A DNA stretch of 64,000 nucleotides from the sequence record PZ738962.1; one strand, written 5' to 3'. Under the pieces are notes generated by a model, which worked only from the letters and a program-made list of their open reading frames with translations, made no database searches and had not been told where the DNA came from. Every line of letters begins with the position of its first letter. Position 1 is the first letter of the stretch. This stretch comes from a phage. The position numbers were made by a program, and so were the translations under genes. Below are positions 36,483 through 62,251 of the stretch, in pieces.

Positions 36483-36511
36483 ATTATGATATACACCCTC
36501 TGTTATGTCAA
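36483..36511 (-). promoter_or_regulatory. sigma70-like early promoter (minus strand TTGACA-17-CATAAT)
   Basis: plus strand shows attatg...tgtcaa; sits about 37 nt upstream of the 70 aa gene start. Confidence 0.5.
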
Positions 36512-36517
36512 CAACTT

Positions 36518-36697
36518 TTAGAACATTTTTGAAATCAATTCTGCTTTGATTTCGCAGAGAACATCTAAAGATTTCTCGTCACCCGCTTTTGCTGCTTCTG
36601 CTTGCATTTTTGAAATGGCTTCAATGTCAGTGCAATTATAAGCCGCTTGAACTTTAGCGATTGCGATGATTGCCGATTCGATGGTTAAGTGTTTCAT
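36518..36697 (-). CDS. hypothetical small protein (59 aa, below ORF-track cutoff)
   Basis: hand-translated MKHLTIESAIIAIAKVQ...; ATG preceded by AGGAGAATCAAAC. Confidence 0.35.
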   Translation of the reverse strand: MKHLTIESAIIAIAKVQAAYNCTDIEAISKMQAEAAKAGDEKSLDVLCEIKAELISKMF

Positions 36698-36731
36698 GTT
36701 TGATTCTCCTAGTTCGTTTCGGTATGTGTGT

Positions 36732-36761
36732 ATTATAGGGGATCTCCGATCCCCCTGTCAA
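36732..36761 (-). promoter_or_regulatory. promoter-stem-loop cassette (TTGACA, palindromic GGGGGATCGGAGATCCCC spacer, TATAAT)
   Basis: consensus -35 and -10 hexamers on the minus strand with 18 nt palindromic spacer. Confidence 0.6.
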
Positions 36762-36768
36762 CAACTTT

Positions 36769-37287
36769 TTAGTTATTTTTTAATTGCTCATCTTGCAATA
36801 GGGCAATCACATGCTGGCGATGTTCTTCCGATTGAGGAACACCGAAAAAGTTTGTTTTGTAGAAATACTCTAATCGGTCTTCTCGTGTGCTCTCTTCCAT
36901 CATGATCGCGGGTAGTCCGAGATTTCGGAAACGTCGCTTTTCTGCTGACGTAAAATCACTGTAATACAACATAGAATCATCATTACCAGCAATGCTAAAC
37001 TCATCTTTCATAAAGGAGAATATTGCGTTTAAACGCTGTTTACCGTCCACGATTTCGATCTCATAGCGAGAGCCATCATCAATCTTAGCCATTGCGATAG
37101 CACCAACCGGAAAATCATTAATCAGGTTTTCGATAAACATACGTTTGTTTTCGGTGTCCCATACCAAAGGACGCTGATAATCTGGGTTCATGTTGATATA
37201 GCCATCTTCTAACCACGCCTCATAAACAGAGATGACAAAGTTTTTAGTATTGGTATAGTAACGGCGTTTAGGCGTTAAACGGTTCAT
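36769..37287 (-). CDS. DUF262 / ParB-Srx-like domain protein (stand-alone)
   Basis: ORF-track start is TTG; ATG at 37287 has AGGAGA Shine-Dalgarno and abuts the upstream stop; motifs NPDYQRPLVW and VDGKQRLNAI (DGQQR-like). Confidence 0.55.
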   Translation of the reverse strand: MNRLTPKRRYYTNTKNFVISVYEAWLEDGYINMNPDYQRPLVWDTENKRMFIENLINDFPVGAIAMAKIDDGSRYEIEIVDGKQRLNAIFSFMKDEFSIAGNDDSMLYYSDFTSAEKRRFRNLGLPAIMMEESTREDRLEYFYKTNFFGVPQSEEHRQHVIALLQDEQLKNN

Positions 37288-37288
37288 G

Positions 37289-37621
37289 TTATAGTCTCCT
37301 GAATGGATCATCACGTAAATCAATATCTTTTAAGAACTCATCCCATGAATGTCGGATATTGTTCTTAATTCTCCAGATAAGCGCAGGGATTGAACGCTCT
37401 CCCATCTGGAAGTATGGATCATATGATCCGTATGCCCAATATGCTACTACAATTCCACAATCAGCGCAATAATATTCTATTTCACTTGCTGGCGACCAAA
37501 GTCCATCAATATGATCAGTGATCTTGCTTTCGATGTTATGGCTATGACAATCAGGGCAACGGATGCAATGACCTTGTTTATCGTAATTTGACGTTAGCGA
37601 ATACTTAAACAATCTCATCAT
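37289..37621 (-). CDS. zinc-ribbon protein
   Basis: 110 aa; CIRCPDC...YYCADCG (two CxxC pairs); translationally coupled on both sides. Confidence 0.5.
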   Translation of the reverse strand: MMRLFKYSLTSNYDKQGHCIRCPDCHSHNIESKITDHIDGLWSPASEIEYYCADCGIVVAYWAYGSYDPYFQMGERSIPALIWRIKNNIRHSWDEFLKDIDLRDDPFRRL

Positions 37622-38334
37622 AGATCCTTATTTGCTTCAAATACTGCCTTTGCGAATCCTCGCGGGGTAAGTGACCTGATAGTCTTTGTTTTCGTTCCTT
37701 TCCCGCCTAGCTTAGAATGCTGTTTACTGTACCCTTTATTAATCTGCAACGGTTTCTTTTCTGGCATTATAAAGCCTTGTCCGGTCCATAAGCAAGTCTT
37801 TTTCGGGTACATATCACGGGCGGCGATATACTCAGGAAACGTAGGATGTTTATCATCTTCCGGCAAATAACCGCCATATTCCCACGGATGTAACATGTAA
37901 TCAGGCTTACGCCACATACTAGAGATAACGCTTACAGGATTCTCTATCATGTAGGGAACTCCTAGCCATTCACCCAAATAAGCGGTTATTTTAGCTGCCC
38001 GTACATCATGAACTTGAATCAATGGTCCTTGTTCTCGTTTCTTTCGTTCAAAGTGTGCAGCGCCACTAACAGCTAAATTGGTGCACGGTGGGAATGCAAA
38101 GATAATATCCGGTTTCCCCCATTCAAGGTCCATTGCTCTTTCTAGCCAGTTCAAATCAATCCATGTGTTTACATAGGTAATGTTTGGGTGTTCAAATCTG
38201 GTATTATACTTTTTGTATGTGCCGTGGTCGCCATCGTCAGCATTAAAGCAGATCACCTTATGACCTGCTTTAGCCCATTCTAGCCCCATTATCCCCGATC
38301 CGTCAAAGTTACAGAATATTAATTTTTGTTTCAT
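37618..38334 (-). CDS. minimal C5-cytosine-methyltransferase-like protein (no obvious target-recognition domain)
   Basis: 238 aa; motif I-like FCNFDGSGIMG, motif IV-like IIFAFPPCTNLAVSG (Pro-Cys), motif VI-like YMIENPVSV, motif IX-like RSLTPRGFAKAV; collinear with M.HhaI motif order (recalled). Confidence 0.45.
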   Translation of the reverse strand: MKQKLIFCNFDGSGIMGLEWAKAGHKVICFNADDGDHGTYKKYNTRFEHPNITYVNTWIDLNWLERAMDLEWGKPDIIFAFPPCTNLAVSGAAHFERKKREQGPLIQVHDVRAAKITAYLGEWLGVPYMIENPVSVISSMWRKPDYMLHPWEYGGYLPEDDKHPTFPEYIAARDMYPKKTCLWTGQGFIMPEKKPLQINKGYSKQHSKLGGKGTKTKTIRSLTPRGFAKAVFEANKDL

Positions 38335-38576
38335 ATACGCCCCTTTAATCCAACACAGATTTTAGAAGGTTCTTTGCCGTGCCACATTAAGTAAAGTCCG
38401 TTAATGCGGCCTTGTTTTGTATATGATTCTTTTCTGATCTTCTTATAGTGTCGTGCTTCCTCAACTGATTGTTTAGAATACCAATCATAAAGGAAGAGGC
38501 ACAAAGGCCAACCATTAGCGGCCTTAATGCAGTTATTAAGAAATTCCTTATTGCGTTTAATTAATTTTCTTTTCAC
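38331..38576 (-). CDS. hypothetical protein (GTG start overlapping upstream stop)
   Basis: 81 aa; 4 nt overlap (GTGA) with upstream gene. Confidence 0.35.
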   Translation of the reverse strand: MKRKLIKRNKEFLNNCIKAANGWPLCLFLYDWYSKQSVEEARHYKKIRKESYTKQGRINGLYLMWHGKEPSKICVGLKGRI

Positions 38577-38824
38577 GCTGCCCCCATTGGTTTGATAGTA
38601 ACAGAATCTAAAAGACCTTTGTTAGCCAGTTCGCGGCAAGTTTTCAGATCCGCAACTTCCCAGCCAGCCGCAATCAGGTTATCAATCAGGCTGTTAGCAA
38701 CTTCTTCGCTCATGAAAGAGCACTGTTTGCCGATGGTGTAGCGTACACGCTGTAATTTCAGTTTACGGAAGCCTTTAACGTTCAGGTCTTTAGCGATTTT
38801 CTTTGCGGTTTCGATGTTAGCCAT
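38573..38824 (-). CDS. hypothetical protein, first gene of the five-gene operon
   Basis: 83 aa; ATG with AGGAGAATCAAAC; promoter cassette about 40 nt upstream. Confidence 0.45.
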   Translation of the reverse strand: MANIETAKKIAKDLNVKGFRKLKLQRVRYTIGKQCSFMSEEVANSLIDNLIAAGWEVADLKTCRELANKGLLDSVTIKPMGAA

Positions 38825-38864
38825 TGTTTGATTCTCCTAAGTGGTATCTCGTCTTGATGGTTGT

Positions 38865-38893
38865 ATTGTAGGGGAGTTATCCTCCCCTGTCAA
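38865..38893 (-). promoter_or_regulatory. promoter-stem-loop cassette (TTGACA, GGGGAGGATAACTCCCC, TACAAT)
   Basis: palindromic 17 nt spacer between near-consensus hexamers. Confidence 0.55.
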
Positions 38894-38907
38894 CACTTTT
38901 TATAAAA

Positions 38908-39075
38908 TTATTTGTTAATTTCCGGTGCGTTGCTCGGATAGTAACCTTCTTTAACACCCAGATATTTTGCAACCATCCCTACAATCTTCTGTGCTACTAC
39001 AATGTCAAATTTCAGATAATCTTCGCCGTGGGTTTCAATGATATATGCTTCACATGCTGCTTTAGTCTCGAACAT
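38908..39075 (-). CDS. small protein (55 aa), paralog of 42193..42360
   Basis: hand-translated MFETKAACEAYIIETHGEDYLKFDIVVAQKIVGMVAKYLGVKEGYYPSNAPEINK. Confidence 0.4.
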   Translation of the reverse strand: MFETKAACEAYIIETHGEDYLKFDIVVAQKIVGMVAKYLGVKEGYYPSNAPEINK

Positions 39076-39108
39076 TTTGATTCTCCTATATCTCGTTGGT
39101 ATGTGTGC

Positions 39109-39137
39109 ATTATAGGGGATCTCCCGATCCCCGTCAA
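39109..39137 (-). promoter_or_regulatory. promoter-stem-loop cassette (TTGACG, GGGGATCGGGAGATCCCC, TATAAT)
   Basis: read directly. Confidence 0.55.
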
Positions 39138-39151
39138 CAACTTTTTTAAAA

Positions 39152-39433
39152 TTATTCGTGATTAGTTTCGATATTGTGCATTTTGCACCAGTTTAGCCAA
39201 TCACCCAGATCCTGATAGTTAATGCTTTTATCTGCTGCCATCGTTTTTGTCTTGATACCCATATGTGCGTTATGAGTAAGCATTTTTACAGTGAACTCAA
39301 TTTTATCACCTTTAGCTTTAACATCAACCAGTTTGGTCCACTGGCTACCAGCGCCGCGAATGTTCATACCAACGATGTTTCCGATGTATGCTTCTTTGTT
39401 TTTCAGGATTTCGGTTGCTTTGATGAATTTCAT
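39152..39433 (-). CDS. hypothetical protein
   Basis: 93 aa; Shine-Dalgarno plus ATG; cassette upstream. Confidence 0.45.
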   Translation of the reverse strand: MKFIKATEILKNKEAYIGNIVGMNIRGAGSQWTKLVDVKAKGDKIEFTVKMLTHNAHMGIKTKTMAADKSINYQDLGDWLNWCKMHNIETNHE

Positions 39434-39466
39434 TTTTGATTCTCCAGTTCGTTTCGGTATGGGTGT

Positions 39467-39495
39467 ATTATGCTATGTTCTTACTTTGGTGTCAA
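39467..39495 (-). promoter_or_regulatory. sigma70-like early promoter (TTGACA-17-CATAAT)
   Basis: read directly. Confidence 0.5.
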
Positions 39496-39503
39496 CAACT
39501 TTT

Positions 39504-39773
39504 TTAGATATTTTCAGAAATAAATTTTAAAACTTGACGTAAATGTTTCTCATCTTTGATAGTCGCCGGAAGTTCTTCTTTTACTTCCTGTGCAAGATAG
39601 ATATTTCCGTTCCAAGTGAAAGATCCGTCTTCGTTTACGCGATAGCTGAACATCCACTCGCAATCATTTTCGATTTCATATACACACAGAAGGGTGTAAT
39701 CGTTAAAGCTATTGATTTCAAGGTCGAAGCCGTGACGTTTTGCAAAGTTGGTAGTGGTTTTAGTCAGTGCCAT
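39504..39773 (-). CDS. hypothetical protein
   Basis: 89 aa. Confidence 0.45.
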   Translation of the reverse strand: MALTKTTTNFAKRHGFDLEINSFNDYTLLCVYEIENDCEWMFSYRVNEDGSFTWNGNIYLAQEVKEELPATIKDEKHLRQVLKFISENI

Positions 39774-39813
39774 TGTTTGATTCTCCTAAGTGGTATCTCG
39801 TTTCGATGGGTGT

Positions 39814-39842
39814 ATTATGCTATAGGCGTGATCTGGTGTCAA
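39814..39842 (-). promoter_or_regulatory. sigma70-like early promoter (TTGACA-17-CATAAT)
   Basis: read directly. Confidence 0.5.
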
Positions 39843-39863
39843 CAACTTTTTTTAATTTTTTGG

Positions 39864-39892
39864 AAATAAAAAAGCCGACACTAAGGTCGGCT
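39864..39892 (-). terminator. hairpin agccgac...gtcggct plus T-run (minus strand)
   Basis: read directly; downstream of 39900..40208. Confidence 0.5.
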
Positions 39893-39899
39893 AATAAAA

Positions 39900-40208: not shown

Positions 40209-40231
40209 AGTATTATCCTCAATAGTTTGAT

Positions 40232-40258
40232 GAAAAGGGGTGGGGCTTAACGCCCCGT
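40232..40258 (-). terminator. hairpin ggggc-ttaac-gcccc plus T-run (minus strand)
   Basis: read directly. Confidence 0.45.
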
Positions 40259-40261
40259 ATA

Positions 40262-40549
40262 TTAAAACAGTCCTTCCTGTACACCGTAGTAGAGTTCATC
40301 GCTGATAATTTCATTAATGCGACGGTGTGCATATTCCTGATTTGCGAAGTTATCAGCAAGTTCTACTTTAGTTTCTCCGTCATGAGTCCATTTAGTGATA
40401 ACTTTACCATCTGCAAATTTGAAGTTGAACTCTTTAGCTACTGCATCGCGTACCAGACGTGCGAACTTGTTATTACGGATTGCATTATCGGTTTCGTGTG
40501 CAGCGTGAGCGAATTTGTTAACTTTCAGAGTGATAGTAATGTATGCCAT
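40262..40549 (-). CDS. hypothetical protein (paralog of 43575..43886)
   Basis: 95 aa; shares VR.A.AKEFN.K motif with 43575..43886. Confidence 0.45.
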   Translation of the reverse strand: MAYITITLKVNKFAHAAHETDNAIRNNKFARLVRDAVAKEFNFKFADGKVITKWTHDGETKVELADNFANQEYAHRRINEIISDELYYGVQEGLF

Positions 40550-40595
40550 AATTTGATTCTCCTAGTTAGAAAGTGTATCTCGTTTCGATGGGTGT

Positions 40596-40624
40596 ATTAT
40601 GCTATACACCCGATCTTATGTCAA
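40596..40624 (-). promoter_or_regulatory. sigma70-like early promoter (TTGACA-17-CATAAT)
   Basis: read directly. Confidence 0.5.
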
Positions 40625-40630
40625 CACTTT

Positions 40631-40909
40631 TTATAAAATAATTTTTTGATATTTTTCTATGATGTTTGTGTAGGTCACGTCAACCGCTAGCACCGTTGCT
40701 TCGAATCCACCGTTTAGCCAATGGCTATGATCATGATCGTGAAAGAAACCAAGACCAGTACGAAGACCTTCTTTATATTCGGCGCGTACATTTAGATCAT
40801 CATCGATAAACAGATAAAACCATGAATTTTTACTAGGATTGATGATACAACCTTTCAGATTAGGGAGAATATCACGACTAAGAATAAACTTATCACCTAC
40901 TTTGAACAT
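40631..40909 (-). CDS. H-x-H-W family protein, member B
   Basis: start moved to ATG at 40909 (GAGGA Shine-Dalgarno); WFYLFIDDDL...HDHSHW...TVLAVDV. Confidence 0.5.
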   Translation of the reverse strand: MFKVGDKFILSRDILPNLKGCIINPSKNSWFYLFIDDDLNVRAEYKEGLRTGLGFFHDHDHSHWLNGGFEATVLAVDVTYTNIIEKYQKIIL

Positions 40910-40913
40910 AATA

Positions 40914-41234: not shown

Positions 41235-41235
41235 T

Positions 41236-41936: not shown

Positions 41937-41948
41937 AATATATTCCTC

Positions 41949-42128
41949 TTAGAAAGGGATGGTCATTTCTTGAGCTTGTACATTCTCGTTAGGATTAAAC
42001 TTCATCCAGCCGATATTGTCTACCAGCATATGCACATTTTTATCATATCCTACGTGAGTAGTCAACACTAAATGTGCTTTATCTTCAATGATGAGTTCCA
42101 TGTACTTCTGAACTTCGATAGCTTTCAT
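41949..42128 (-). CDS. hypothetical small protein (59 aa, below ORF-track cutoff)
   Basis: hand-translated MKAIEVQKYMELIIEDKAHLVL...; Shine-Dalgarno plus ATG; cassette upstream. Confidence 0.3.
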   Translation of the reverse strand: MKAIEVQKYMELIIEDKAHLVLTTHVGYDKNVHMLVDNIGWMKFNPNENVQAQEMTIPF

Positions 42129-42160
42129 TTTGATTCTCCGTTTGTTGTCTTGATGGGAGT

Positions 42161-42189
42161 ATCTTACTACTCCCTTTAATCATTGTCAA
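42161..42189 (-). promoter_or_regulatory. promoter-stem-loop cassette (TTGACA, palindromic GGGAGTAGTA spacer, TAAGAT)
   Basis: read directly; same cassette type as 51787, 52294. Confidence 0.45.
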
Positions 42190-42192
42190 CTA

Positions 42193-42360
42193 TTATTTGT
42201 TAATTTCTGGTGCGTTGCTCGGATAGTAACCTTCTTTAACACCCAGATATTTTGCGACCATTCCGGTGATCTTCTGTGCTACTACGATATCGAATTTCAG
42301 GTAATCTTCACCGTGGTTTGCTACAATGTATGCTTCGCATTCTGCTTTAGTCTGGAACAT
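42193..42360 (-). CDS. small protein (55 aa), paralog of 38908..39075
   Basis: ORF-track start 42447 runs through the promoter; ATG 42360 gives MFQTKAECEAYIVANHGEDYLKFDIVVAQK... Confidence 0.4.
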   Translation of the reverse strand: MFQTKAECEAYIVANHGEDYLKFDIVVAQKITGMVAKYLGVKEGYYPSNAPEINK

Positions 42361-42394
42361 TTTTGATTCTCCTATATCTCGTTGGTATGTGTGC

Positions 42395-42423
42395 ATTATA
42401 GGGGATCGGTGATCCCCTGTCAA
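42395..42423 (-). promoter_or_regulatory. promoter-stem-loop cassette (TTGACA, GGGGATCACCGATCCCC, TATAAT)
   Basis: perfect consensus hexamers, 17 nt palindromic spacer. Confidence 0.6.
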
Positions 42424-42430
42424 CAACTTT

Positions 42431-42739
42431 TTATTCTTCATCTTCATTTTTATCTTTATATGCGTACTTCATAAATTTGTCTGCTACTTTGTCCGCGTTT
42501 TCAGGTTCGACGTCTGACGCTAGGACAACAGCTAGTTCGGTTTTGTCGTTTCCATCATACCAATGATTATGAGTGTCGTTTTCTTCGATATAAAACGAAT
42601 CATTTGGAGTTGTGCGACAATATACGTCTAAATTCCCGTCGATATAAAAGATCCAATCCGAATACAAAATGATTGCTTTAGCCAGATTTTTATTGTCTCT
42701 TACAAAAGGTTCCGCGACAAATAGCTTAGTATGTTCCAT
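42431..42739 (-). CDS. H-x-H-W family protein, member E
   Basis: start moved to ATG 42739 (GAGGA Shine-Dalgarno); WIFYIDGNL...DTHNHW...LAVVLASDV. Confidence 0.5.
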   Translation of the reverse strand: MEHTKLFVAEPFVRDNKNLAKAIILYSDWIFYIDGNLDVYCRTTPNDSFYIEENDTHNHWYDGNDKTELAVVLASDVEPENADKVADKFMKYAYKDKNEDEE

Positions 42740-42755
42740 AGTATTTTCCTCAAAA

Positions 42756-43323: not shown

Positions 43324-43503
43324 TTACATAACAATCACGCCCGCCGTTGAAAGTTGATGTTTCAACTGAGCATTTTCTGCTACCGTCAAATCAATGATTT
43401 CTTGTGACGCTGCAATCATATAGCCATTGGTGATATTGTTTTGCATCAGTTCAATGGTTTCTTCGTTGTAGCGGATTTTAGCGATGATTTCGTTGAAGTT
43501 CAT
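43324..43503 (-). CDS. hypothetical small protein (59 aa)
   Basis: ORF-track start runs into the promoter; ATG 43503 with AGGAGAATCAATT. Confidence 0.35.
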   Translation of the reverse strand: MNFNEIIAKIRYNEETIELMQNNITNGYMIAASQEIIDLTVAENAQLKHQLSTAGVIVM

Positions 43504-43537
43504 AATTGATTCTCCTAGTTCGTTTCGGTATGTGTGT

Positions 43538-43566
43538 AGTATAGGGGATCGGTGATCCCCTGTCAA
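43538..43566 (-). promoter_or_regulatory. promoter-stem-loop cassette (TTGACA, GGGGATCACCGATCCCC, TATACT)
   Basis: read directly. Confidence 0.55.
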
Positions 43567-43574
43567 CAACTTTT

Positions 43575-43886
43575 TTAAAGTTTTTCCATGATAACGGTCA
43601 TAATTACATCTTCTGCGCGAGCGGTCAGATTATCAGCGTCAGCATGTGGGCGGCTGGTTGTTACAGAGATAACACCGTTGCGCACTGGTTTGATGTTGAT
43701 ATCAAGATGATCCGCGAAACGTTCGCCAGTTACAGAATGAATTTTGGTGTTAAATTCTTTTGCCAGTGCCTTGCGAACTTCACGAATCAGGGTAGCGTTT
43801 TTCAGTTGGTTCTCCGCGCTCATGGTCTTCTGGGTGTTCATGGTTCCGTCGAAGTCAATCATTGGCAGCGTTACGATGTATTTCAT
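43575..43886 (-). CDS. hypothetical protein (paralog of 40262..40549)
   Basis: start moved to ATG 43886 (MKYIVTLPM...); shares KEFN.K motif. Confidence 0.45.
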   Translation of the reverse strand: MKYIVTLPMIDFDGTMNTQKTMSAENQLKNATLIREVRKALAKEFNTKIHSVTGERFADHLDINIKPVRNGVISVTTSRPHADADNLTARAEDVIMTVIMEKL

Positions 43887-43931
43887 TTTTGATTCTCCGT
43901 TTAAGAAAGTGTGTTTCGTTTTGATGTGTGT

Positions 43932-43960
43932 AGTATAGGGGATCACCGATCCCCTGTCAA
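43932..43960 (-). promoter_or_regulatory. promoter-stem-loop cassette (TTGACA, GGGGATCGGTGATCCCC, TATACT)
   Basis: read directly. Confidence 0.55.
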
Positions 43961-43972
43961 CAACTTTTTGAA

Positions 43973-44449
43973 TTATTTTTCTTGATGCTCGCGATCGTAC
44001 TTTTCGAAATAAAATTCTACTGGCTGGTCGTGGATTGACAGCAAGCCAAAGCGTTTAGCCGCTCGCAATCCCATATTGCGCTGAATGTACTTCTGGAAGT
44101 TCTCGCGTATACACTTACGCCAGTATTCTAAGCCCATACAGCTTTTATAAAGATTGCATTGCACACACGCCGGATTCATGTTATCAAGTATATCATGCTC
44201 CGGTTTATGCATTCCTACAACCTTATATTTCCATGATCCATCATCATTACGGGCAATTCGTCCATTTTCATCATAGACTACCTTTGAGCGTCGCAATACT
44301 GGTTTGATGTGGTCCGCGTGCCAGCGATCCCCTAGTTCCTCGCCACAATAGGCACAACGTCCACCATATTTCATTTTCAGGATCTGGCGTTGCTCTTTCT
44401 TTGACAATTTTTTAGGTTTAGGGGCTTTCGCCCCTTCATTATCACACAT
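43973..44449 (-). CDS. HNH homing endonuclease (Mob-like), free-standing upstream of ligase
   Basis: 158 aa; CAYCG...HADHIKP...N...CVQCN (HNH with zinc-binding Cys pairs); stop overlaps ligase start region. Confidence 0.65.
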   Translation of the reverse strand: MCDNEGAKAPKPKKLSKKEQRQILKMKYGGRCAYCGEELGDRWHADHIKPVLRRSKVVYDENGRIARNDDGSWKYKVVGMHKPEHDILDNMNPACVQCNLYKSCMGLEYWRKCIRENFQKYIQRNMGLRAAKRFGLLSIHDQPVEFYFEKYDREHQEK

Positions 44450-51354: not shown

Positions 51355-51753
51355 TTAACTTTCCAGAATATCGCGAGCTTCGTTACGCTCCTTGATGATT
51401 TTCAGGACAAATTCCAGTTTTTCTTTGTTCAGCGTTCCATTTTCCATTGCTTCTTCGACGGTAAACACTCCGCCACCTTGCCCGTATACAGTGACAGTGA
51501 TTTCACCTAACATCGTGGTATGAAAACCGCCAATTTTCGGTGATTCGAAAGAAACAATTACCTCGCGAACAGTATTACCGTCGTTGATTTCTGAGAGGGT
51601 AATGTCGTTTTTGTAGGCGGTTGCTTTAACCATACGGATCAGCATAGTCTGATCTGGGGAGATGGTCATTTTGTCCATTGCATGTTGCAATGCAGCGTAA
51701 CCGAAAACTTTAACGAAGTCCAGAACGTCTTTGCGAGTTTGAAATTTAATCAT
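51355..51753 (-). CDS. hypothetical protein
   Basis: 132 aa; cassette promoter upstream. Confidence 0.4.
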   Translation of the reverse strand: MIKFQTRKDVLDFVKVFGYAALQHAMDKMTISPDQTMLIRMVKATAYKNDITLSEINDGNTVREVIVSFESPKIGGFHTTMLGEITVTVYGQGGGVFTVEEAMENGTLNKEKLEFVLKIIKERNEARDILES

Positions 51754-51786
51754 CTTGATACTCCTTAGTTGTTTTGGTATGGGAGT

Positions 51787-51815
51787 ATCTTACTACTCCC
51801 GTGATATGCTGTCAA
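51787..51815 (-). promoter_or_regulatory. promoter-stem-loop cassette (TTGACA, palindromic GGGAGTAGTA spacer, TAAGAT)
   Basis: read directly. Confidence 0.45.
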
Positions 51816-51824
51816 CTGCTTTTT

Positions 51825-51974
51825 TTATGCAACCGCAAACATCAACATTTGAACATTCTTGGCTGTCTGGCTTTCAAAGTTCTGACATTCTTTGATAATG
51901 TCCTCTACTTTCTCGCCGGAGATCTCCGCGTAAGTTTCGATTGCCATTTTCAGTACCGCGTCAAAGTTGTTCAT
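51825..51974 (-). CDS. hypothetical small protein (49 aa)
   Basis: hand-translated MNNFDAVLKMAIETYAEISGEKVEDIIKECQNF...; AGGAGAATCAA Shine-Dalgarno. Confidence 0.3.
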   Translation of the reverse strand: MNNFDAVLKMAIETYAEISGEKVEDIIKECQNFESQTAKNVQMLMFAVA

Positions 51975-52012
51975 TTGATTCTCCTTAAAGTGTATTTCGT
52001 TTCGATGGGGGT

Positions 52013-52041
52013 ATATTACTACCCCCGTTTCATGCTGTCAA
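52013..52041 (-). promoter_or_regulatory. promoter-stem-loop cassette (TTGACA, palindromic GGGGGTAGTA spacer, TAATAT)
   Basis: read directly. Confidence 0.45.
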
Positions 52042-52260
52042 CTACTTTTTAATGACAAGTTCGAATTTTGCTACCTTGCGTCCTCGTTTATTGAAAGCAA
52101 CCCACGGACGGTTTTCAATGTAGAACAATTCTTCGCCAATAATGAATACTGGCTGATTGTAAAGGCGACCCATCAGGTCACGCTGGCGAATGGTAGTAGA
52201 TTCGTATACTTCTCCTACTACAAAGTGTTTGCTGATAGAGTCGGTGCAAGTAAATTTCAT
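52042..52260 (-). CDS. hypothetical small protein
   Basis: 72 aa. Confidence 0.35.
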   Translation of the reverse strand: MKFTCTDSISKHFVVGEVYESTTIRQRDLMGRLYNQPVFIIGEELFYIENRPWVAFNKRGRKVAKFELVIKK

Positions 52261-52293
52261 TTTGATTCTCCTTTGTTTCGTTTCGATGGGAGT

Positions 52294-52322
52294 ATCTTAC
52301 TACCCCCGTTATTCAGTGTCAA
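52294..52322 (-). promoter_or_regulatory. promoter-stem-loop cassette (TTGACA ... TAAGAT)
   Basis: read directly. Confidence 0.45.
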
Positions 52323-52329
52323 CTACTTT

Positions 52330-52548
52330 TTACTTGTTGTATTCATTCCACCACTGGGTGAGCTTATCAATTATTTTTGTGTTTCTATCCAACTTCTCCC
52401 ACCGTTTTCTAGGGTTTATCAACCGGAATAGGTAAGGTGTACTTGTTAAGTGAACTCGGTCAATGTAGTGATTGATGTACTGCTTTTCAATTCTAAGTTT
52501 CATCTTTTTACGATGAAAATGTGCAATGACTTGTTCTTCTGTTTCCAT
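52330..52548 (-). CDS. hypothetical small protein
   Basis: 72 aa. Confidence 0.35.
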   Translation of the reverse strand: METEEQVIAHFHRKKMKLRIEKQYINHYIDRVHLTSTPYLFRLINPRKRWEKLDRNTKIIDKLTQWWNEYNK

Positions 52549-52572
52549 ATGTTCCTCCGTTTCGATGTGCGT

Positions 52573-52601
52573 ATTATGCTATGGCAAGATCAGATTGTCA
52601 A
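52573..52601 (-). promoter_or_regulatory. sigma70-like early promoter (TTGACA-17-CATAAT)
   Basis: read directly. Confidence 0.5.
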
Positions 52602-52648
52602 CACCCAATAACAAAAAAGTCGCCACTATGGGCGACTTTGAACAAACA

Positions 52649-54640: not shown

Positions 54641-54806
54641 TCCGACAACCTCAAAACATTTATCATCAGGAAGAATCGCCCATTCTACACCATATTCATC
54701 CTCGACGTAGTAGCAAGTCCCATCATGTCGAGCATCATATTCATCACCAACAACAAAGCTATCAGCTAGTTCAAAAATCTACAGCAACACATTTTAATTT
54801 GGTCAT
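54641..54806 (-). pseudogene. small gene interrupted by a frameshift in an A5/T5 run
   Basis: ATG 54806 with GAGGA Shine-Dalgarno reads MTKLKCVAVDF then stop; the adjacent frame is open to 54641. Confidence 0.3.
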
Positions 54807-54837
54807 AATAAAATCCTCACTTGTTTTTGATGGTTGT

Positions 54838-54866
54838 ATTATAGCGGGGAGAAATCCCCGCGTCAA
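54838..54866 (-). promoter_or_regulatory. promoter-stem-loop cassette (TTGACG, CGGGGATTTCTCCCCGC, TATAAT)
   Basis: read directly. Confidence 0.5.
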
Positions 54867-54874
54867 CACTTATT

Positions 54875-57118
54875 TTACAGCTTGCAAGATGAGCACTCGC
54901 TAGCGTCTTCCGTACCATCTGCACCGTCGCGAACGTTCGCATAATACAGGGTTTTCAGACCGTAATATTGAGCAAACAACATATCATCTAATACATCAGC
55001 AATATCGACTTTACCAGTCTTATAAGTGCTTGGATCATAGGATGTATTGGAACTAATCGCCTGATCCACAAACTTCTGCATGATTGCTGCCAGTGTCAGA
55101 TAAGGCTTGTTACCTTTCTTGATCAGTGTCCAAAGCAGGTCAATAACATCAGCATTATTCTCTACGTTCGGAATAACCTGATTAAATTGTCCTTCTTTCG
55201 ATCCTTTAACCGATACAATCCCGCGAGGCGGTTCAATACCGTTTGTGCTGTTAGATACCTGAGAAGACGACTCACAAGGCATCAGCGCCGACAGTGTACT
55301 GTTACGAATGCCATATTTTTTCAGGTCTTCGCGCAGTTCTTCCCAATCCATCTCATACACCGGATCAACCAGTTCATCTACTGTCTTTTTGTACCAGTCG
55401 ATAGGCAGTTCACCGCGACCATAACGTGTTTCATGCATCAGTTCGCAAGCACCCTTCTCTTTAGCCAGTTGCACACTAGCCTTAATCAGAGCATATTGCA
55501 AGCGTTCAAACGTTTTATGCGTAAACTCGCTAGCGTCTTCATATGTGAAGAAATTATCTGCTAGATATGATGCAAAGTTAGTCACACCAACACCCAGAGA
55601 GCGACGTTTTTTGGCTGTCAGAGCTTGTTCTACAGGATAATCCTGATAATCTAACAGGTTGTCCAGTGCACGCACCATAACCATAGCAATGCGTTCTACT
55701 TCTTCCATATTTTCGATATCAAAGTTTCCTAAAACATATGCTGCCAAAGTACATAGGCTGATCTCTGAATCATCACGACCCATCGGTTTTGTAGGCAGAG
55801 CAATTTCACAACACAGGTTAGATTGTTTAATCGGTGCTACATTACGAATAAACGCCCCGTGATTGTTCATGTTGTCTGTGAACGTTGGGTAGATTCGACC
55901 AGTGTTAAAACGTTCAATTGCCACCGCTAAAAACAGGTCTTCGGCTTTAACACGAGTTTTACGAACACTCGGATCTTTTTCCAGTTTTTCGTAAAGCTGG
56001 CGGAAACCTTCCTCATCTCGGAAGTACAGATCCCACAACAAGCCACCCGCAACATCTGGACTAAACAGAGTAATGTAATCCCGTTTAAGGAATCGCTCTA
56101 CCATCAGGTTATTAATCTGTACGCCGTAGTCAAGATGACGAATGCGGTTATCTTCCACGCCCTTATTGTTCTTTAACACAATCAGACTTTCAAACTCTAA
56201 ATGCCACATTGGGTAATAGAGTGTCGCTGCCCCGCCACGAATACCGCCTTGTGAGCATGACTTAACGGCAGTCTGAAAATGTTTCCAGAATGGGATAACG
56301 CCAGTATGACGAACTTCACCATGCCCGATCTTAGATCCTTCCGCGCGAATCATACCAGCATTGATACCGATACCAGCACGCTTGCTAATATACTTGATGA
56401 TTGCATTTGCTGTTTCGTTGATGCCCTGCAATGAGTCATCACTTTCAATCACCACACACGAACTAAATTGGCGTGTTGGGGTACGCACACCTGCCATAAT
56501 CGGAGTAGGCAGAGAGATTTGCTTATTCGCAACAGCATTATAAAAATCAATCACATGTTCAAGTCGATTTTCTGTCTCTTCTTGATGCAAGCACATACCG
56601 ATCAGCATATACGCAAATTGCGGTGTTTCGATGATTTTCTTAGTGCTGCGATCCTGAACAAGATATTTCTCTTTTAACTGCATCGCACCAGCATAGGTCA
56701 TTTTAAAATCAAGTTTATGGTCGATGAATTTCTCCAGATATTCCACTTCTTCACGGGAATATTTTTGCAGAATTTCGCGATCATATTTTCCGGTTGCAAT
56801 ATTACGCTCAATATGGCTATAAAAATCAATAGGTTGGAATTGACCGTATACTGATTTGCGAAGCGCGAACATTGCAAGGTTACTTGCTACATATTGATAA
56901 TCGGGTGTTTCGACAGTAATGTTATCTGCTGCGACCTTAATCAATACTTTCTGGATATCATTGGTAGACATACCTTCTGTCAGAAGTGGTTCAACCATAT
57001 CAAACAATTCATATGGATCAACGTTATGACCTTCGGCTGCCGCTTCCAGAATTTTCATTACTTTTTCTTTTTCAAACGGAACAGTCAGACCGGAAGACTT
57101 AACAACATTTTTAATCAT
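54875..57118 (-). CDS. nrdA: ribonucleotide reductase large (alpha) subunit
   Basis: 747 aa; class Ia motifs including NLCCEIALP; uninterrupted ORF. Confidence 0.9.
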   Translation of the reverse strand: MIKNVVKSSGLTVPFEKEKVMKILEAAAEGHNVDPYELFDMVEPLLTEGMSTNDIQKVLIKVAADNITVETPDYQYVASNLAMFALRKSVYGQFQPIDFYSHIERNIATGKYDREILQKYSREEVEYLEKFIDHKLDFKMTYAGAMQLKEKYLVQDRSTKKIIETPQFAYMLIGMCLHQEETENRLEHVIDFYNAVANKQISLPTPIMAGVRTPTRQFSSCVVIESDDSLQGINETANAIIKYISKRAGIGINAGMIRAEGSKIGHGEVRHTGVIPFWKHFQTAVKSCSQGGIRGGAATLYYPMWHLEFESLIVLKNNKGVEDNRIRHLDYGVQINNLMVERFLKRDYITLFSPDVAGGLLWDLYFRDEEGFRQLYEKLEKDPSVRKTRVKAEDLFLAVAIERFNTGRIYPTFTDNMNNHGAFIRNVAPIKQSNLCCEIALPTKPMGRDDSEISLCTLAAYVLGNFDIENMEEVERIAMVMVRALDNLLDYQDYPVEQALTAKKRRSLGVGVTNFASYLADNFFTYEDASEFTHKTFERLQYALIKASVQLAKEKGACELMHETRYGRGELPIDWYKKTVDELVDPVYEMDWEELREDLKKYGIRNSTLSALMPCESSSQVSNSTNGIEPPRGIVSVKGSKEGQFNQVIPNVENNADVIDLLWTLIKKGNKPYLTLAAIMQKFVDQAISSNTSYDPSTYKTGKVDIADVLDDMLFAQYYGLKTLYYANVRDGADGTEDASECSSCKL

Positions 57119-57187
57119 ATTACCTCACTTCATATTTTAGCAGGAACAAGTTTATCCTCCATATTGGGGGCTTTCGCCCCCCTTTGT

Positions 57188-59339: not shown

Positions 59340-59669
59340 TCAAATCAGTTTGAAATAGTTTTCGTTTACATTTTCTTCTGTGATTGCTGTCTTAAATTCT
59401 TGACCGTTATCCTGTGTGATGAAATAACGGTCAGAATAATCACGAAAACGTTTTAAGTGAGATACCCCAACATTAACACCATTTTCCCAAAAACGAAAGG
59501 TAATCATTTTTGGTTCATATCGATAGTCGCTTGTTAACACAGTACCATCACCGCGACGGGCTTCATAAACCGTAATACATTCACGATTAGCGGCTTTTAG
59601 GCATTCTTCAATAGTGCCGCACGAGATAATACTTACTTTTTCATCTACGATTTGTTCTACAGTCCACAT
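59340..59669 (-). CDS. hypothetical protein
   Basis: 109 aa. Confidence 0.4.
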   Translation of the reverse strand: MWTVEQIVDEKVSIISCGTIEECLKAANRECITVYEARRGDGTVLTSDYRYEPKMITFRFWENGVNVGVSHLKRFRDYSDRYFITQDNGQEFKTAITEENVNENYFKLI

Positions 59670-59700
59670 AATATAATCCTCTCTTTGTTTCGATGTTTGT

Positions 59701-59728
59701 ATTATACATCATCTGTGTTCGGCGTCAA
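59701..59728 (-). promoter_or_regulatory. sigma70-like early promoter (TTGACG-16-TATAAT)
   Basis: read directly. Confidence 0.45.
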
Positions 59729-60054
59729 CCTTTTTGTTCCATGAAAAGCGGTGCTGTTTCTTCTTTCAGTTTAATAACTAGCGCGGAAACTTCATCAAGA
59801 AAATCTTTTTCCATATGAGCAAGCATTGATTTAGAATCTTTGATGACTTTCAAAGAATATTCACTTAGATTTCCTTTTCCTAACAATAATGCAGGATACA
59901 CACTATGTGGGATCTCTATTTCATGATATTCGCTCATAGTATAATATTTGTGAATTTTTAAATCTATATTTCTTCGTTGTACGTCCACATCAGCAATGAC
60001 ATACAGAAGTTCGATTTTATCACTTTTCTGGGAAAGGGTAGCATTCAAAAACAT
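59725..60054 (-). CDS. hypothetical protein
   Basis: 109 aa. Confidence 0.4.
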   Translation of the reverse strand: MFLNATLSQKSDKIELLYVIADVDVQRRNIDLKIHKYYTMSEYHEIEIPHSVYPALLLGKGNLSEYSLKVIKDSKSMLAHMEKDFLDEVSALVIKLKEETAPLFMEQKG

Positions 60055-60083
60055 TGTTAATCCTCCGTTGTTTCGATATGTGC

Positions 60084-60111
60084 ATTATACACTATTGCGT
60101 TACGCTGTCAA
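60084..60111 (-). promoter_or_regulatory. sigma70-like early promoter (TTGACA-16-TATAAT)
   Basis: read directly. Confidence 0.45.
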
Positions 60112-61098
60112 CTCTTTTTCAAAAGTTTTTACGATATACATGATAGTGCTCAATTCAGACGGCGCTACTGTTTCGGTCCAGCCATCCGGCATATCTTCTT
60201 TTGAGATATAGGAAGTTTTACCTTTCATCGCTTCCTTGATCTTGTTCTCTAATTCTAAGATCTTTTGACCGTCTTGTAAAGTCAATTCATAAAAGATCTC
60301 GTGGTCGAATTTAGATTTCGCTGATTGAGCTTTTATTCTATCCTTTGTGGTTCTATTTGTTATACCAAATTTAACACCAAAAAATAAACCATTATTCAAC
60401 AATTTTTGGACATAAAAAGTTCCTTGTCTTGACGGAACGTAACCATATTTCGCACATTTACTACATCTATTACCACTTTCGAATCCAGTTATTGTTGGCG
60501 TAAACTTGTGTCCGTTGCAGCATTGTAGATTTAATTTTGTTTTATTTCCTACCCAATCACCAATAAACCCACTAAACTTTATATTTTCTTTACCAAATAT
60601 TGGCTTTAATCTTTGTAAATAATCTTCTTTTGTTATTGACTTTAATTCTTTAAGTTTATCGGCTTTACATTCGGGGCAACGACAACCGCTATTAAATGTA
60701 TCAATAGTTGGTGTAAACTTATGTCCCTTGTTACATTGTAGATTAAGTCTTGTTAGTTTTCCCTTCCATTCACCAATAAATCCATTGAATGTTATATTTT
60801 CCCTGTAAAATATTGGCTTGAATCTTTGCAAATAATCTTCTTTTGTTATTTTTGTGTATGCACATTTAGGACAGCGTCGACCACTATTAAAACTGTCGAT
60901 TCTTGGGGTGAATGTGTGTCCGTTGGTGCACTGTAGATGTAATTTTGTTCTATTCCCCCTCCACTCACCAATAAACCCGTTAAATATTATACCTTCCGAT
61001 AGACAAACTTCCATGATATTTGACTGATAATCTCCCGGTAATTTTGTTCTCCCGGATTTATAAACTAGTTCAATCTCATGCGCTTGACGTACTAACAT
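60100..61098 (-). CDS. protein with three tandem zinc-ribbon-like repeats and a C-terminal GIY-YIG-like (T5orf172-type) domain
   Basis: start moved to ATG 61098 (GGAGGA Shine-Dalgarno); three repeats F(N/S)GFIG.W.G..T.L.LQC..GH.FTP.I..F.SG.RC..C; C-terminal GTFYVQ...GVKFGITNRTTKDRIKAQ. Confidence 0.5.
   Translation of the reverse strand: MLVRQAHEIELVYKSGRTKLPGDYQSNIMEVCLSEGIIFNGFIGEWRGNRTKLHLQCTNGHTFTPRIDSFNSGRRCPKCAYTKITKEDYLQRFKPIFYRENITFNGFIGEWKGKLTRLNLQCNKGHKFTPTIDTFNSGCRCPECKADKLKELKSITKEDYLQRLKPIFGKENIKFSGFIGDWVGNKTKLNLQCCNGHKFTPTITGFESGNRCSKCAKYGYVPSRQGTFYVQKLLNNGLFFGVKFGITNRTTKDRIKAQSAKSKFDHEIFYELTLQDGQKILELENKIKEAMKGKTSYISKEDMPDGWTETVAPSELSTIMYIVKTFEKELTA
60442..60990 (-). repeat. 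three tandem direct repeats of about 190-210 bp within the coding sequence
   Basis: near-identical DNA blocks (e.g. ccaataaa...ttatattttc...aatattggctt...aatctttg.aaataatcttcttttgttat) seen three times. Confidence 0.55.
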
Positions 61099-61129
61099 AT
61101 TTTTTATCCTCCATTGTTTCGATGTGTGC

Positions 61130-61157
61130 ATTATACATTACCACATAAGCATGTCAA
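61130..61157 (-). promoter_or_regulatory. sigma70-like early promoter (TTGACA-16-TATAAT)
   Basis: read directly; -10 overlaps the ORF-track start of the downstream ORF. Confidence 0.45.
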
Positions 61158-61218
61158 CATCTTTTCATAAATTTTTAGGCAATAAAAAAGCCTCCCCGAA
61201 GGAAGGCTTTAAAATTCA

Positions 61219-62187
61219 TTACATCCCTAACAGAGCGTCAAGATCATCCAGATCAGAAGCGGAGGAAGTACCGCCACCCAGGTCCAGAGATGCCATCAGG
61301 TCATCAGCGGAAGAATCTAACGCCGTGCTAGCTGCGTTAATACCAACTACAGTGCTAGCTGCGGTCATACCAGAATCGAATGCATTCATCTGTGCGTCAA
61401 AATCGTCAAGCTGGCTGTTAATCGCTGCCGCAGCACTGGAAGCCGCAGCACCAGCTACCATAGAAACGCCCATAGTTTTCTTAAATTTGGTTTCCAGTTC
61501 ATCGAACGGTTTAAACTGGCTAGGCGCTACAATCTCACTCAGATCAACCATGTTTTCCATCAGATATTTCTGATATGCTTCGTCTTCAATTTTCGGAAGC
61601 TGTGATTGCTGCATGAAACGAGAATCATCATAGTTCTGGTGTTTATCAACCTTCTTAGCTTTCAGGAGGAAGTTAGCACCAGAGAACACACAAGTTACAT
61701 CTACCGGAACTTCGCCCATATCGGTATTCACGTTCACCATTGCAACGATCTTATCATAAATTTTCTGACCGAAGCGGAATTTGAATACCTTACCTTCATT
61801 TTCTGGTGCTTGAGGATCTTTCAGTACCAGAATGTTTGCGTAGTAAGACGCTTTACGCTTAATCAGTTGCCATTCGGTTTTATCGGTATTGTACAAGTCT
61901 TTTTCGTTAATATATTTGCACACAGGGCAAGAATCAAAATCACCGTGGGTGCTGGAGCAGTTTTCCCAATACCATTTGCCATTAACTTTGAAGGAATGGT
62001 TTACCAGTTTCACAATCGGCAGACCGTCTTCTGTCTTAGACGGCAGGAAGCGAATCAGGGCTTCACCGTTACCTGCTGCATCAGTCTTAATCTTCCACTC
62101 TTTCGGATCTTCTTTGGAGAAACCGTTGCCACCTTTCAGTGCGGCCAGTTGAGCTTGCAGTTTGGAAGAATCTTGGCGTTTAAACAT
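61219..62187 (-). CDS. 32: single-stranded DNA-binding protein gp32
   Basis: ORF-track start is GTG; ATG gives MFKRQDSS...; FLPSK...VNH.FK.NGKWY.E.CSSTHGD.DSCPVC, acidic C-terminal SDLDDLD match recalled T4 gp32. Confidence 0.9.
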
Positions 62188-62223
62188 ATTCACTATTCCT
62201 TCTTTTGATTAATTTACTAGACT

Positions 62224-62251
62224 ATTATACAGATTTAAATTTACTTGTCAA
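62224..62251 (-). promoter_or_regulatory. sigma70-like promoter upstream of gene 32 (TTGACA-16-TATAAT)
   Basis: read directly. Confidence 0.45.

Follow-up and report, generated by a model that had tools for sequence, protein, structure and literature searches.

The minus strand of a 64,000-nt stretch of phage DNA (sequence record PZ738962.1; this whole stretch is referred to as the window) carries, between 36.4 and 62.3 kb, twenty near-consensus sigma70 promoters, each of which is placed in front of a gene. With a probability of about 0.9, we identify these promoter cassettes as the promoter-early stem-loops (PeSLs) of RB49/phi1-type (Krischvirus) T4-like phages, shuffled by homologous recombination. 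They belong to a family that is already known and partly tested, located in the region in which it was first described, and the shuffling that has been proposed for it is supported by the genome comparison with 10 relatives of the window.

A dispersed family of promoter cassettes

The span surveyed was that delimited by the initial annotation, and each cassette is designated by the first base of its -35 hexamer. On the minus strand, 20 near-consensus promoters were found there, all of them intergenic, with -35 first bases at 36511, 36761, 38893, 39137, 39495, 39842, 40624, 42189, 42423, 43566 and 43960 (cassettes 1-11) and at 51815, 52041, 52322, 52601, 54866, 59728, 60111, 61157 and 62251 (cassettes 12-20). 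Further sites lay beyond this span at 34097, 20685 and 20120. The initial annotation had described about twenty minus-strand cassettes in front of genes, composed of TTGACA, a spacer of 16-18 nt and a TATAAT-like hexamer. Both statements hold: 20 cassettes were counted, 19 of which fall into one dispersed repeat family, all spacers measured 16-18 nt, and between 36001 and 62300, the minus strand contained 19 matches to at least 11 of the 12 hexamer positions and the plus strand none, compared with 0.42 ± 0.64 in 200 first-order Markov simulations.

The exact form TTGACA-N15-19-TATAAT was observed 10 times in the window, nine of these on the minus strand, with 0.16 occurrences expected. Among the cassettes themselves, at least 10 of the 12 hexamer positions matched in 20/20, at least 11 in 16/20 and all 12 in 5/20. 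It is the top tier alone that stands out, as a looser scan (at least 9/12) revealed no enrichment (56 versus 47).

The intergenic gaps hosting the cassettes measure 45-126 bp. In 20/20 cases, the ATG of a minus-strand gene follows 24-46 nt downstream of the -10 hexamer and is preceded by a Shine-Dalgarno sequence of the GGAG type; the motif GGAG[A/T]ATCAA was present in 14 copies, without exception on the minus strand, with 0.16 expected. Upstream of the cassettes, the AT content over 30 nt averaged 74%, compared with 60% for the region. For 14 of the 20 cassettes, the upstream gene ends in a stop codon 0-14 nt ahead of the -35 hexamer; for three, this stop codon is 47-61 nt ahead of it, past a terminator hairpin, and in three others the upstream gene runs 4-12 nt into the -35 hexamer.

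Self-BLAST between the cassettes gave alignments 45-119 bp long, the majority spanning 70-100 bp, and identities of 71-94%; these were 75-91% for most of the 70-100 bp repeats and 85-91% for the closest pairs. An nhmmer profile built from 19 cassettes returned the same 19 copies, all on the minus strand, at E values of 1e-9 to 1e-19, a result that is circular by construction, whereas the pairwise BLAST matches are not. This profile search yielded no further convincing copies beyond the 19 and missed promoter 62251, which has only the hexamers in common with the family. Between 33000 and 64000, no Rfam family matched at gathering thresholds; tRNAs and relevant tandem repeats were searched for and none were found.

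Identity with the published PeSLs

Comparison of positions 36000-48000 with Krischvirus genomes revealed identities of 97.7% to FL37, 96.9% to kvi, 95.5% to phi1 and ~96% to the RB49-species genome; with an identity of 95-98% to FL37, kvi, phi1 and RB49, the window belongs to Krischvirus. The region is collinear with open reading frames ORF185-ORF247 of phi1, comprising alt, the ORFan run, DNA ligase, cd, pseT, nrdB, nrdA, td, frd, gene 32 and gene 59. Its cassette-bearing part is orthologous to phi1 ORF185-ORF212 and the nrd/td/frd cluster, a hyperplastic region, which is adjoined by the gene of the Alt ADP-ribosyltransferase at 34115-36166.

PeSLs were defined in the hyperplastic region of the coliphages phi1 and RB49 (Arbiol et al. 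2010, PMC2839356), with 52 copies in phi1 and 51 in RB49. They mostly precede ORFans and are composed of an AT-rich upstream tract, a sigma70 promoter, a stable and often polyG...polyC stem-loop, and a Shine-Dalgarno sequence with the ATG at the 3' end; the hairpin takes one of five positions, most commonly between -35 and -10 or overlapping -10 (PMC2839356). In that study, a lacZ fusion revealed promoter activity of PeSL206/205 at ~13,000 Miller units, the stem-loop of PeSL211/210 exerted a terminator effect in a lacZ reporter, and mini-circles around ORF192 and ORF210 were detected by inverse polymerase chain reaction, with crossovers between -10 and ATG and, for one RB49 mini-circle, in the hairpin loop (PMC2839356). 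The concept was subsequently extended to other T4-like phages (Comeau, Arbiol and Krisch 2014, PMC4122927).

Using the intergenic regions of the RB49 reference genome for comparison, it was found that RB49 PeSL206/205, PeSL211/210, PeSL192/191 and PeSL195/194 correspond almost base for base to the window cassettes 42423, 43960, 39137 and 39842, respectively. A likeness to mobile regulatory cassettes of RB49-like T4-type phages had already been suspected in the initial annotation, and this near-identity to published RB49 PeSLs in an orthologous region bears it out. Shared with the PeSLs of phi1 and RB49 are the architecture, i.e., promoter boxes, AT-rich upstream tract, stem-loop position and Shine-Dalgarno sequence with ATG, the location in the same hyperplastic genome region among ORFan genes, conservation over ~100 bp and the association with indels, in addition to the orthology to published copies. 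The differences are at the strain level only: the window is devoid of RB49 ORF192, ORF195/196 and ORF211, has its own mix of cassette-flanked genes, and displays a hairpin inversion at 54866 and an apparent leader conversion at 39137, both of which are window-specific. The PeSL-like motifs of T4/PST and KVP40/nt-1 (PMC4122927) are likewise composite promoter/terminator exchange points in hyperplastic regions, but they have other sequences and come from other genera, while the window copies are members of the RB49/phi1 sequence family.

Near-consensus boxes and an A-rich upstream tract are also what the window promoters have in common with the early promoters of T4. In T4, early promoters combine near-consensus -35 and -10 hexamers with an A-rich UP-like tract and are read by the host E-sigma70; generally, they are not known to be fused to an in-promoter hairpin or to form so uniform a family of 70-100 bp repeats that includes the leader and the ribosome-binding site.

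Integron attC cassettes are comparable by analogy only, in that structured imperfect palindromes lie at the borders of small genes, for which circle excision with reinsertion has been proposed. In contrast to integrons, the window cassettes each have their own promoter, there is no integrase or attI, and the exchange resembles general homologous recombination over ~20-100 bp rather than site-specific recombination on folded single strands. No integrase is annotated in the orthologous regions of phi1, kvi, Makalu, ELT4, SFHK24, PHB13, W115 and phiS, and scans of 19 window proteins against Pfam or PHROGs matched none. Integron-type site-specific recombination was rejected on the grounds of the missing integrase and of junctions that instead show extended homology.

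Recombination at the cassettes

Since an IMG/VR scan with the ORF193 homologue returned a single locus, ECD7, the relatives were drawn from GenBank phage records. The 10 relatives were phi1, the RB49-species genome (RB49sp), FL37, kvi, Makalu, ELT4, SFHK24, PHB13, W115 and phiS, and indel events of at least 100 bp were derived from BLAST chains over positions 36000-62300 of the window. In total, 18 distinct indel or replacement events with 36 endpoints were obtained. Enrichment of cassettes at gene-content breakpoints between relatives had been set in advance as a check in the initial annotation, and it was observed: 22 of the 36 endpoints are located in cassettes, which make up 7.3% of the interval (binomial P = 1.5e-16, a value that is inflated, as viable indels are intergenic and most gaps longer than 50 bp in this region are cassettes), with two more endpoints less than 20 bp away. 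Because the breakpoint statistic is overstated, the argument for recombination is carried by the junction overlaps and the chimeric cassettes.

In the seven cassette-to-cassette events with extra DNA in the window, the alignments flanking the junction overlap in the relative by 35-91 bp of shared cassette sequence, and the junction is thus placed within that sequence. Both endpoints were located in cassettes in 9 of the 18 events. Extra DNA in the window was represented by one gene at 36487/36699 (compared with RB49sp, PHB13 and phiS), five genes at 42432/43884 (phiS), the ORF210 homologue at 43592/43915 (SFHK24), one gene at 59735/60058 (Phi1, ELT4, W115 and phiS), one gene at 60131/61099 (RB49sp, kvi and SFHK24) and both of the latter genes at 59709/61104 (PHB13). 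On the side of the relatives, ORF211 is present at 43980/43989 in FL37 and PHB13, a gene is replaced at 52331/52559 in ELT4, and a homing-endonuclease insertion is situated within promoter 20 at 62192/62259 in kvi and ELT4. Two events are cassette-to-cassette in substance, one endpoint in each being just outside; these are 39795/39891, where ORF195/196 is present in RB49sp and W115 and the overlap in the window is 97 bp, and 51824/51963, where a gene for a 49-amino-acid protein is missing from SFHK24 and phiS. Homing endonucleases account for three of the indels, but not for the cassette-bounded ones.

A chimeric cassette was found in RB49sp before the 36446 gene, where the upstream tract, spacer hairpin and -10 hexamer are of the 36761 type and the leader is of the 36511 type; therefore, the crossover occurred in the identical leader between -10 and ATG, like those of the published mini-circles. 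SFHK24 is lacking exactly the ORF210 homologue (43575-43886 in the window; ~25505-25579 in SFHK24 L008), which corresponds to an exchange between 43566 and 43960. This deletion would be the reciprocal genomic product expected of the published excision of the ORF210 mini-circle.

At 39076-39108, the leader of cassette 39137 is ACCAACGAGATATAGGAG, that is, the leader of cassette 42423, with ACCGAAACGAAATAGGAG present in 10/10 relatives. Within the duplicated pair 38907-39146 and 42192-42432, a gene conversion specific to the window has apparently taken place.

The cassettes could also be regarded as ordinary strong early promoters, whose likeness would result from convergent selection on sigma70 recognition and ribosome binding, with indels merely filling the intergenic gaps. 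Hexamers and Shine-Dalgarno sequences are functional elements that are prone to converge, as would be in line with promoter 62251 having nothing but the hexamers in common, and nearly all long intergenic gaps in the region are cassettes, so viable indels end there. However, the similarity runs over 70-100 bp at 75-91% identity, leader and upstream tract included; where the window has extra DNA between two cassettes, the junction in the relative retains 35-91 bp of common cassette sequence; chimeric cassettes were directly seen; and the 39137 leader, which has apparently taken on the 42423 type, speaks for ongoing exchange. In addition, homing-endonuclease insertions in the same genomes land elsewhere, namely at 46986 and 54276. 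We consider convergence to be an extremely improbable explanation.

An origin from a miniature inverted-repeat transposable element or other transposon was rejected, as every copy points in the direction of the genes and no transposase is listed among the annotated relatives; the junctions show homology and not new duplications, target-site duplications not having been searched for directly.

Hairpins within the cassettes

For folding, the stretch from the -35 hexamer through 12 nt beyond the -10 hexamer was used. A hairpin fully within the spacer was obtained for seven of the 20 cassettes (36761, 38893, 39137, 42423, 43566, 43960 and 54866; dG of -12.8 to -14.2), five of which are of the GGGGATC...GATCCCC type (5 copies versus 0 expected). 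The palindromic spacer that had been ascribed to roughly half of the cassettes was thus overstated, since this class amounts to 35%; counting any hairpin in the promoter core, the proportion is 65%. The -10 hexamer constitutes the hairpin loop in six cassettes (36511, 40624, 42189, 51815, 52041 and 52322), a classical hairpin with a T-run precedes the -35 hexamer in three (39842, 52601 and 61157), and no hairpin was found in four (39495, 59728, 60111 and 62251). Folding energies of the hairpins were between -11 and -14 kcal/mol, with z values of -2.7 to -5. The position of the hairpin is always 5' of the predicted transcription start of the cassette, implying that it would be transcribed only in the read-through RNA of the preceding gene.

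Because the hairpins occur in differing registers between cassettes, orthologues were compared cassette by cassette. Hairpin-bearing cassettes retained the hairpin in every one of ~70 orthologue variants from the 10 relatives, with dG values of -7.3 to -18.6. Compensatory stem swaps were evident at 40624 (GGGTGTAT/ATACACCC versus GGGGATAT/ATATCCCC) and at 43566 (GGGGATC/GATCCCC versus GGGGAG/CTCCCC), and across the class with the hairpin overlapping -10, the stems are GGGAGTA/TACTCCC, GGGGGTA/TACCCCC and GGGAGTAT/ATACTCCC. The compensatory changes demonstrate selection for base pairing. Non-Watson-Crick pairs within the predicted stems are G.U on the sense strand only, which would be weakly consistent with selection acting on the RNA.

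The hairpin core CGGGGATTTCTCCCCG at 54838-54866 is the exact reverse complement of CGGGGAGAAATCCCCG, found in 9/9 relatives in which the locus was recovered; this window-specific inversion of the loop inside the palindrome is equivalent to four simultaneous base changes. Flips of the loop between ACC and GGT were seen at 42423 in comparison with RB49 and at 43960 in comparison with ELT4.

Instead of RNA hairpins, the GGGGATC-N3-GATCCCC elements might represent operators of a dimeric protein or Dam-methylation-sensitive switches by which the early promoters are tuned or shut off. Five copies of one perfect palindrome are situated exactly between -35 and -10, a classic operator site, and contain two GATC sites each; GATC is in excess in the window (366 versus 268 ± 15 expected from dinucleotide-preserving shuffles, the spacer palindromes supplying only 10), and a DNA methyltransferase gene is present in the region. 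This explanation is nonetheless very unlikely, given that the stems vary (GGGGATC, GGGGAG, CGGGGA, GGGTGTAT, GGGAGTA, GGGGGTA), as does the position of the hairpin (in the spacer, over -10, upstream), and that compensatory changes, loop flips and G.U pairs preserve the pairing and not the sequence, which argues for selection on structure. Moreover, a terminator effect was obtained for one such stem-loop in the published reporter (PMC2839356).

According to a third explanation, the hairpins themselves initiate recombination, either as cruciforms or by stalling replication, with an endonuclease VII-type cut or a template switch creating hot spots beyond what homology provides. The core at 54866, inverted with respect to nine relatives, and the ACC/GGT flips at 42423 and 43960 are typical of template switching, and one of the published RB49 mini-circle crossovers was located in the hairpin loop (PMC2839356). 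On the other hand, the crossovers resolved here are in the identical leader between -10 and ATG and not in the hairpin, the hairpin-less cassettes 59728 and 60111 are equally involved in indels, and at 42423 and 43960, the flips may instead have arisen by conversion from a different copy. We assign this possibility a small but real chance. Because of the inverted 54866 core and the two loop flips, there is also a hint that the promoter hairpins additionally are active elements at the DNA level, which would form during replication or under supercoiling, become inverted by template switching and seed cassette exchanges. We regard this as doubtful; if it were true, hairpin-bearing PeSLs would be more recombinogenic than predicted from homology alone.

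Proposed mode of action

In the proposed model, a cassette of ~70 bp would begin with an A-rich UP-like tract overlapping the end of the preceding gene, followed by the sigma70 -35 and -10 hexamers and a short A/C-rich leader, and would end with GGAGAATCAA, a strong Shine-Dalgarno sequence, and the start codon ATG of a small early gene. Host RNA polymerase would fire the cassette promoters right after infection, as inferred here from sequence; for PeSL206/205, the orthologue of 42423, promoter firing has been demonstrated with a lacZ fusion (PMC2839356). The GC-rich hairpin, positioned ~10-40 nt past the previous stop codon and 5' of the cassette's own start, would become the 3' end of the read-through RNA, where it may attenuate or terminate transcription or protect the 3' end. 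Since the read-through RNA from upstream would thereby be stopped or protected, the small genes would each be insulated as a unit of their own.

The common orientation of the cassettes and their identity of 75-91% over 70-100 bp allow the phage's own homologous recombination to act between them. An exchange from cassette to cassette would delete, duplicate, insert or swap the intervening genes and leave behind a functional chimeric cassette. Natural variants among the relatives show such gene exchange between cassettes, and circular excision products of PeSL exchange are known from the literature only (PMC2839356).

Besides the inflated breakpoint statistic, several observations weigh against the identification of the cassettes as PeSLs that are shuffled by homologous recombination. 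Of the 18 events, five to seven are of a kind other than cassette-to-cassette exchange. Homing-endonuclease insertions are present in relatives at 46986/47012, at 54276/54281 and, inside promoter 20, at 62192/62259; an in-operon gene swap was found at 38325-38572 and a 311-bp insertion at 57135-57167, and the body of gene 60100-61098 is swapped with at most one end in a cassette. Concerning the hairpins, those in the spacer are followed by TATAAT and those overlapping -10 by ATCGAAACG, in neither case with a U-run, and hence they are not canonical intrinsic terminators; for both classes, the terminator label goes back to the single published reporter test, as the literature covers just a single stem-loop, of the spacer type, assayed on a reporter plasmid. 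Finally, with 4 of the 20 cassettes being devoid of a hairpin, the hairpin is dispensable for the promoter or for recombination.

Features of the individual cassettes

All cassettes are given with their full extent on the minus strand. Cassette 1 (36444..36531) has the -35 hexamer at 36511-36506, a 17-nt spacer and the -10 hexamer CATAAT at 36488-36483 in the loop of the hairpin GGGTGTAT/ATACACCC, followed by the leader, GGAGTATCAA and the ATG at 36446 of a 70-amino-acid ORFan. Cassette 2 (36695..36781; ATG 36697) consists of TTGACA, GGGGGATCGGAGATCCCC and TATAAT with the hairpin inside the 18-nt spacer; its gene and one cassette are missing from RB49sp, PHB13 and phiS. Cassette 3 (38822..38913; ATG 38824) contains the hairpin GGGGAGGATAACTCCCC in the spacer and the -10 hexamer TACAAT. 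Cassette 4 (39073..39157; ATG 39075), with TTGACG, GGGATCGGGAGATCCCC and TATAAT, is placed between the homologues of ORF191 and ORF193, where RB49 has ORF192 between PeSL193/192 and PeSL192/191; it matches RB49 PeSL192/191, with the leader apparently converted to the 42423 type. The form TTGACA-17-CATAAT is found in cassette 5 (39431..39515; ATG 39433), which is hairpin-less, and in cassette 6 (39771..39892; ATG 39773), where it is preceded by the upstream terminator AGCCGAC..GTCGGC with six T residues (39892-39873); in RB49 and W115, an additional gene (ORF195/196) is present between two copies of cassette 6.

In cassette 7 (40547..40644; ATG 40549), the hairpin GGGTGTAT/ATACACCC surrounds the -10 hexamer CATAAT, with the compensated stem GGGGATAT/ATATCCCC in Phi1, RB49sp, kvi and SFHK24, and in cassette 8 (42126..42209; ATG 42128), the hairpin GGGAGTA/TACTCCC surrounds TAAGAT. 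Cassette 9 (42358..42443; ATG 42360; TTGACA, GGGGATCACCGATCCCC, TATAAT) is the orthologue of PeSL206/205, its loop being flipped in comparison with RB49 (ACC versus GGT). The spacer sequence GGGGATCACCGATCCCC recurs in cassette 10 (43501..43586; ATG 43503) between TTGACA and TATACT. Cassette 11 (43884..43980; ATG 43886; TTGACA, GGGGATCGGTGATCCCC, TATACT) is the orthologue of PeSL211/210 and is located upstream of the homologue of the mini-circle gene ORF210.

Cassette 12 (51751..51835; ATG 51753) has the hairpin GGGAGTA/TACTCCC around TAAGAT, followed by GGAGTATCAA. The hairpin is GGGGGTA/TACCCCC around TAATAT in cassette 13 (51972..52061; ATG 51974), whose gene for a 49-amino-acid protein is missing from SFHK24 and phiS, and GGGGGTA/TACTCCC, with one G.U pair, around TAAGAT in cassette 14 (52258..52342; ATG 52260). 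Cassette 15 (52546..52639; ATG 52548) combines the upstream terminator AAAGTCGCC..GGCGACTTT and its T-run (52639-52616) with TTGACA-17-CATAAT; in ELT4, the stretch between cassettes 14 and 15 is occupied by a different gene. Cassette 16 (54804..54886; ATG 54806) is composed of TTGACG, CGGGGATTTCTCCCCG C and TATAAT. The ORF233 homologue downstream of it (54638-54806, minus strand) is frameshifted by a run of five T compared with four in phi1 (GTAGATTTTTGAAC versus GTAGATTTTGAAC), and may be either a pseudogene or the result of a homopolymer sequencing error.

Cassette 17 (59667..59748; ATG 59669; TTGACG-16-TATAAT) is hairpin-less, and cassette 18 (60052..60131; ATG 60054; TTGACA-16-TATAAT) is without a strong hairpin; the gene of the latter, 59725-60054, is missing from Phi1, ELT4, W115 and phiS. 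In cassette 19 (61096..61210; ATG 61098), the upstream terminator AAAGCCTTCC..GGAGGCTTT with a T-run (61210-61187) precedes TTGACA-16-TATAAT, and the gene 60100-61098 is missing or swapped in relatives. Promoter 20 (62185..62271; ATG 62187; TTGACA-16-TATAAT), which shares only its hexamers with the family, is placed ahead of gene 32 and is replaced at the homing-endonuclease insertion in kvi and ELT4.

Outside the surveyed span, the site at 34034..34117 (minus strand; TTGACT-17-TATACT) precedes the ATG at 34036 of the ADP-ribosyltransferase gene and is identical in 10/10 relatives; its hairpin has 13 pairs, one internal bulge and part of the -10 hexamer in the loop (dG -18.9). The site at 20615..20740 (minus strand; ATG 20617) consists of a terminator hairpin with a T-run and TTGACA-16-TATAAT.

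Genes around the cassettes

The segment of gene plus cassette at 38907-39146 is 88.8% identical to that at 42192-42432, and the encoded 55-amino-acid proteins (38908-39075 and 42193-42360) are 89% identical. Weaker paralogue groups are formed by 39900/40914 with 40631, 41658 and 43004, by 41236/41414 and by 54298/54465, and 40262 and 43575 were assigned to the same PHROG. The picture of duplicated and shuffled small genes flanked by cassettes, as drawn at the outset, is thus supported by the 55-amino-acid pair, the paralogue groups and the cassette-bounded exchanges. All nine of the small downstream proteins that were scanned against PHROGs matched families of unknown function only.

Within the ORFan run, an operon occupies 36769-38334 on the minus strand; its products are a protein with a GmrSD_N (DUF262) domain (36769-37287), a protein with a zinc ribbon and a DNA methyltransferase (37618-38334), the last of which had no Pfam match and is named after the phi1 annotation. 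In phiS, another gene is present in place of 38331-38576. The product of the gene at 60100-61098 (minus strand) has 332 amino acids and contains three CapR-homology/treble-clef repeats, corresponding to DNA repeats at 60491-60997; it matches a PHROG designated 'endonuclease'. Its N-terminal part is swapped in phi1, Makalu, ELT4 and phiS, and the gene is wholly missing from kvi, the RB49-species genome, SFHK24 and PHB13.

In the relatives, homing/HNH endonuclease genes of 620-710 bp are found in gene 31.1, in the gap between nrdB and ORF231 and in the gap between genes 32 and 59. The insertions at 46986-47012 and 54276-54281 are not cassette-bounded, and the one at 62192-62259 replaces promoter 62251. 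The gap between nrdA and td (57135-57182) contains the hairpin GGGGGCTTTCGCCCCC without a cassette promoter, with an extra 303-nt gene in Makalu and SFHK24. Near hoc, an indel hot spot was observed at 22097-22103, where Phi1 and Makalu have ~70 bp extra and SFHK24 has 2.4 kb of other sequence.

Implications

For the window, the result is mainly one of annotation, predicting 20 early transcription units and the sites of gene gain and loss among Krischvirus therapy phages. No new kind of element is described; rather, 10 newer genomes independently support the PeSL model of 2010. PeSLs are regulatory DNA that at the same time provides lytic phages with portable homology by which genes are shuffled, and they account for a large share of the differences in gene content between hyperplastic regions of T4-like genomes.

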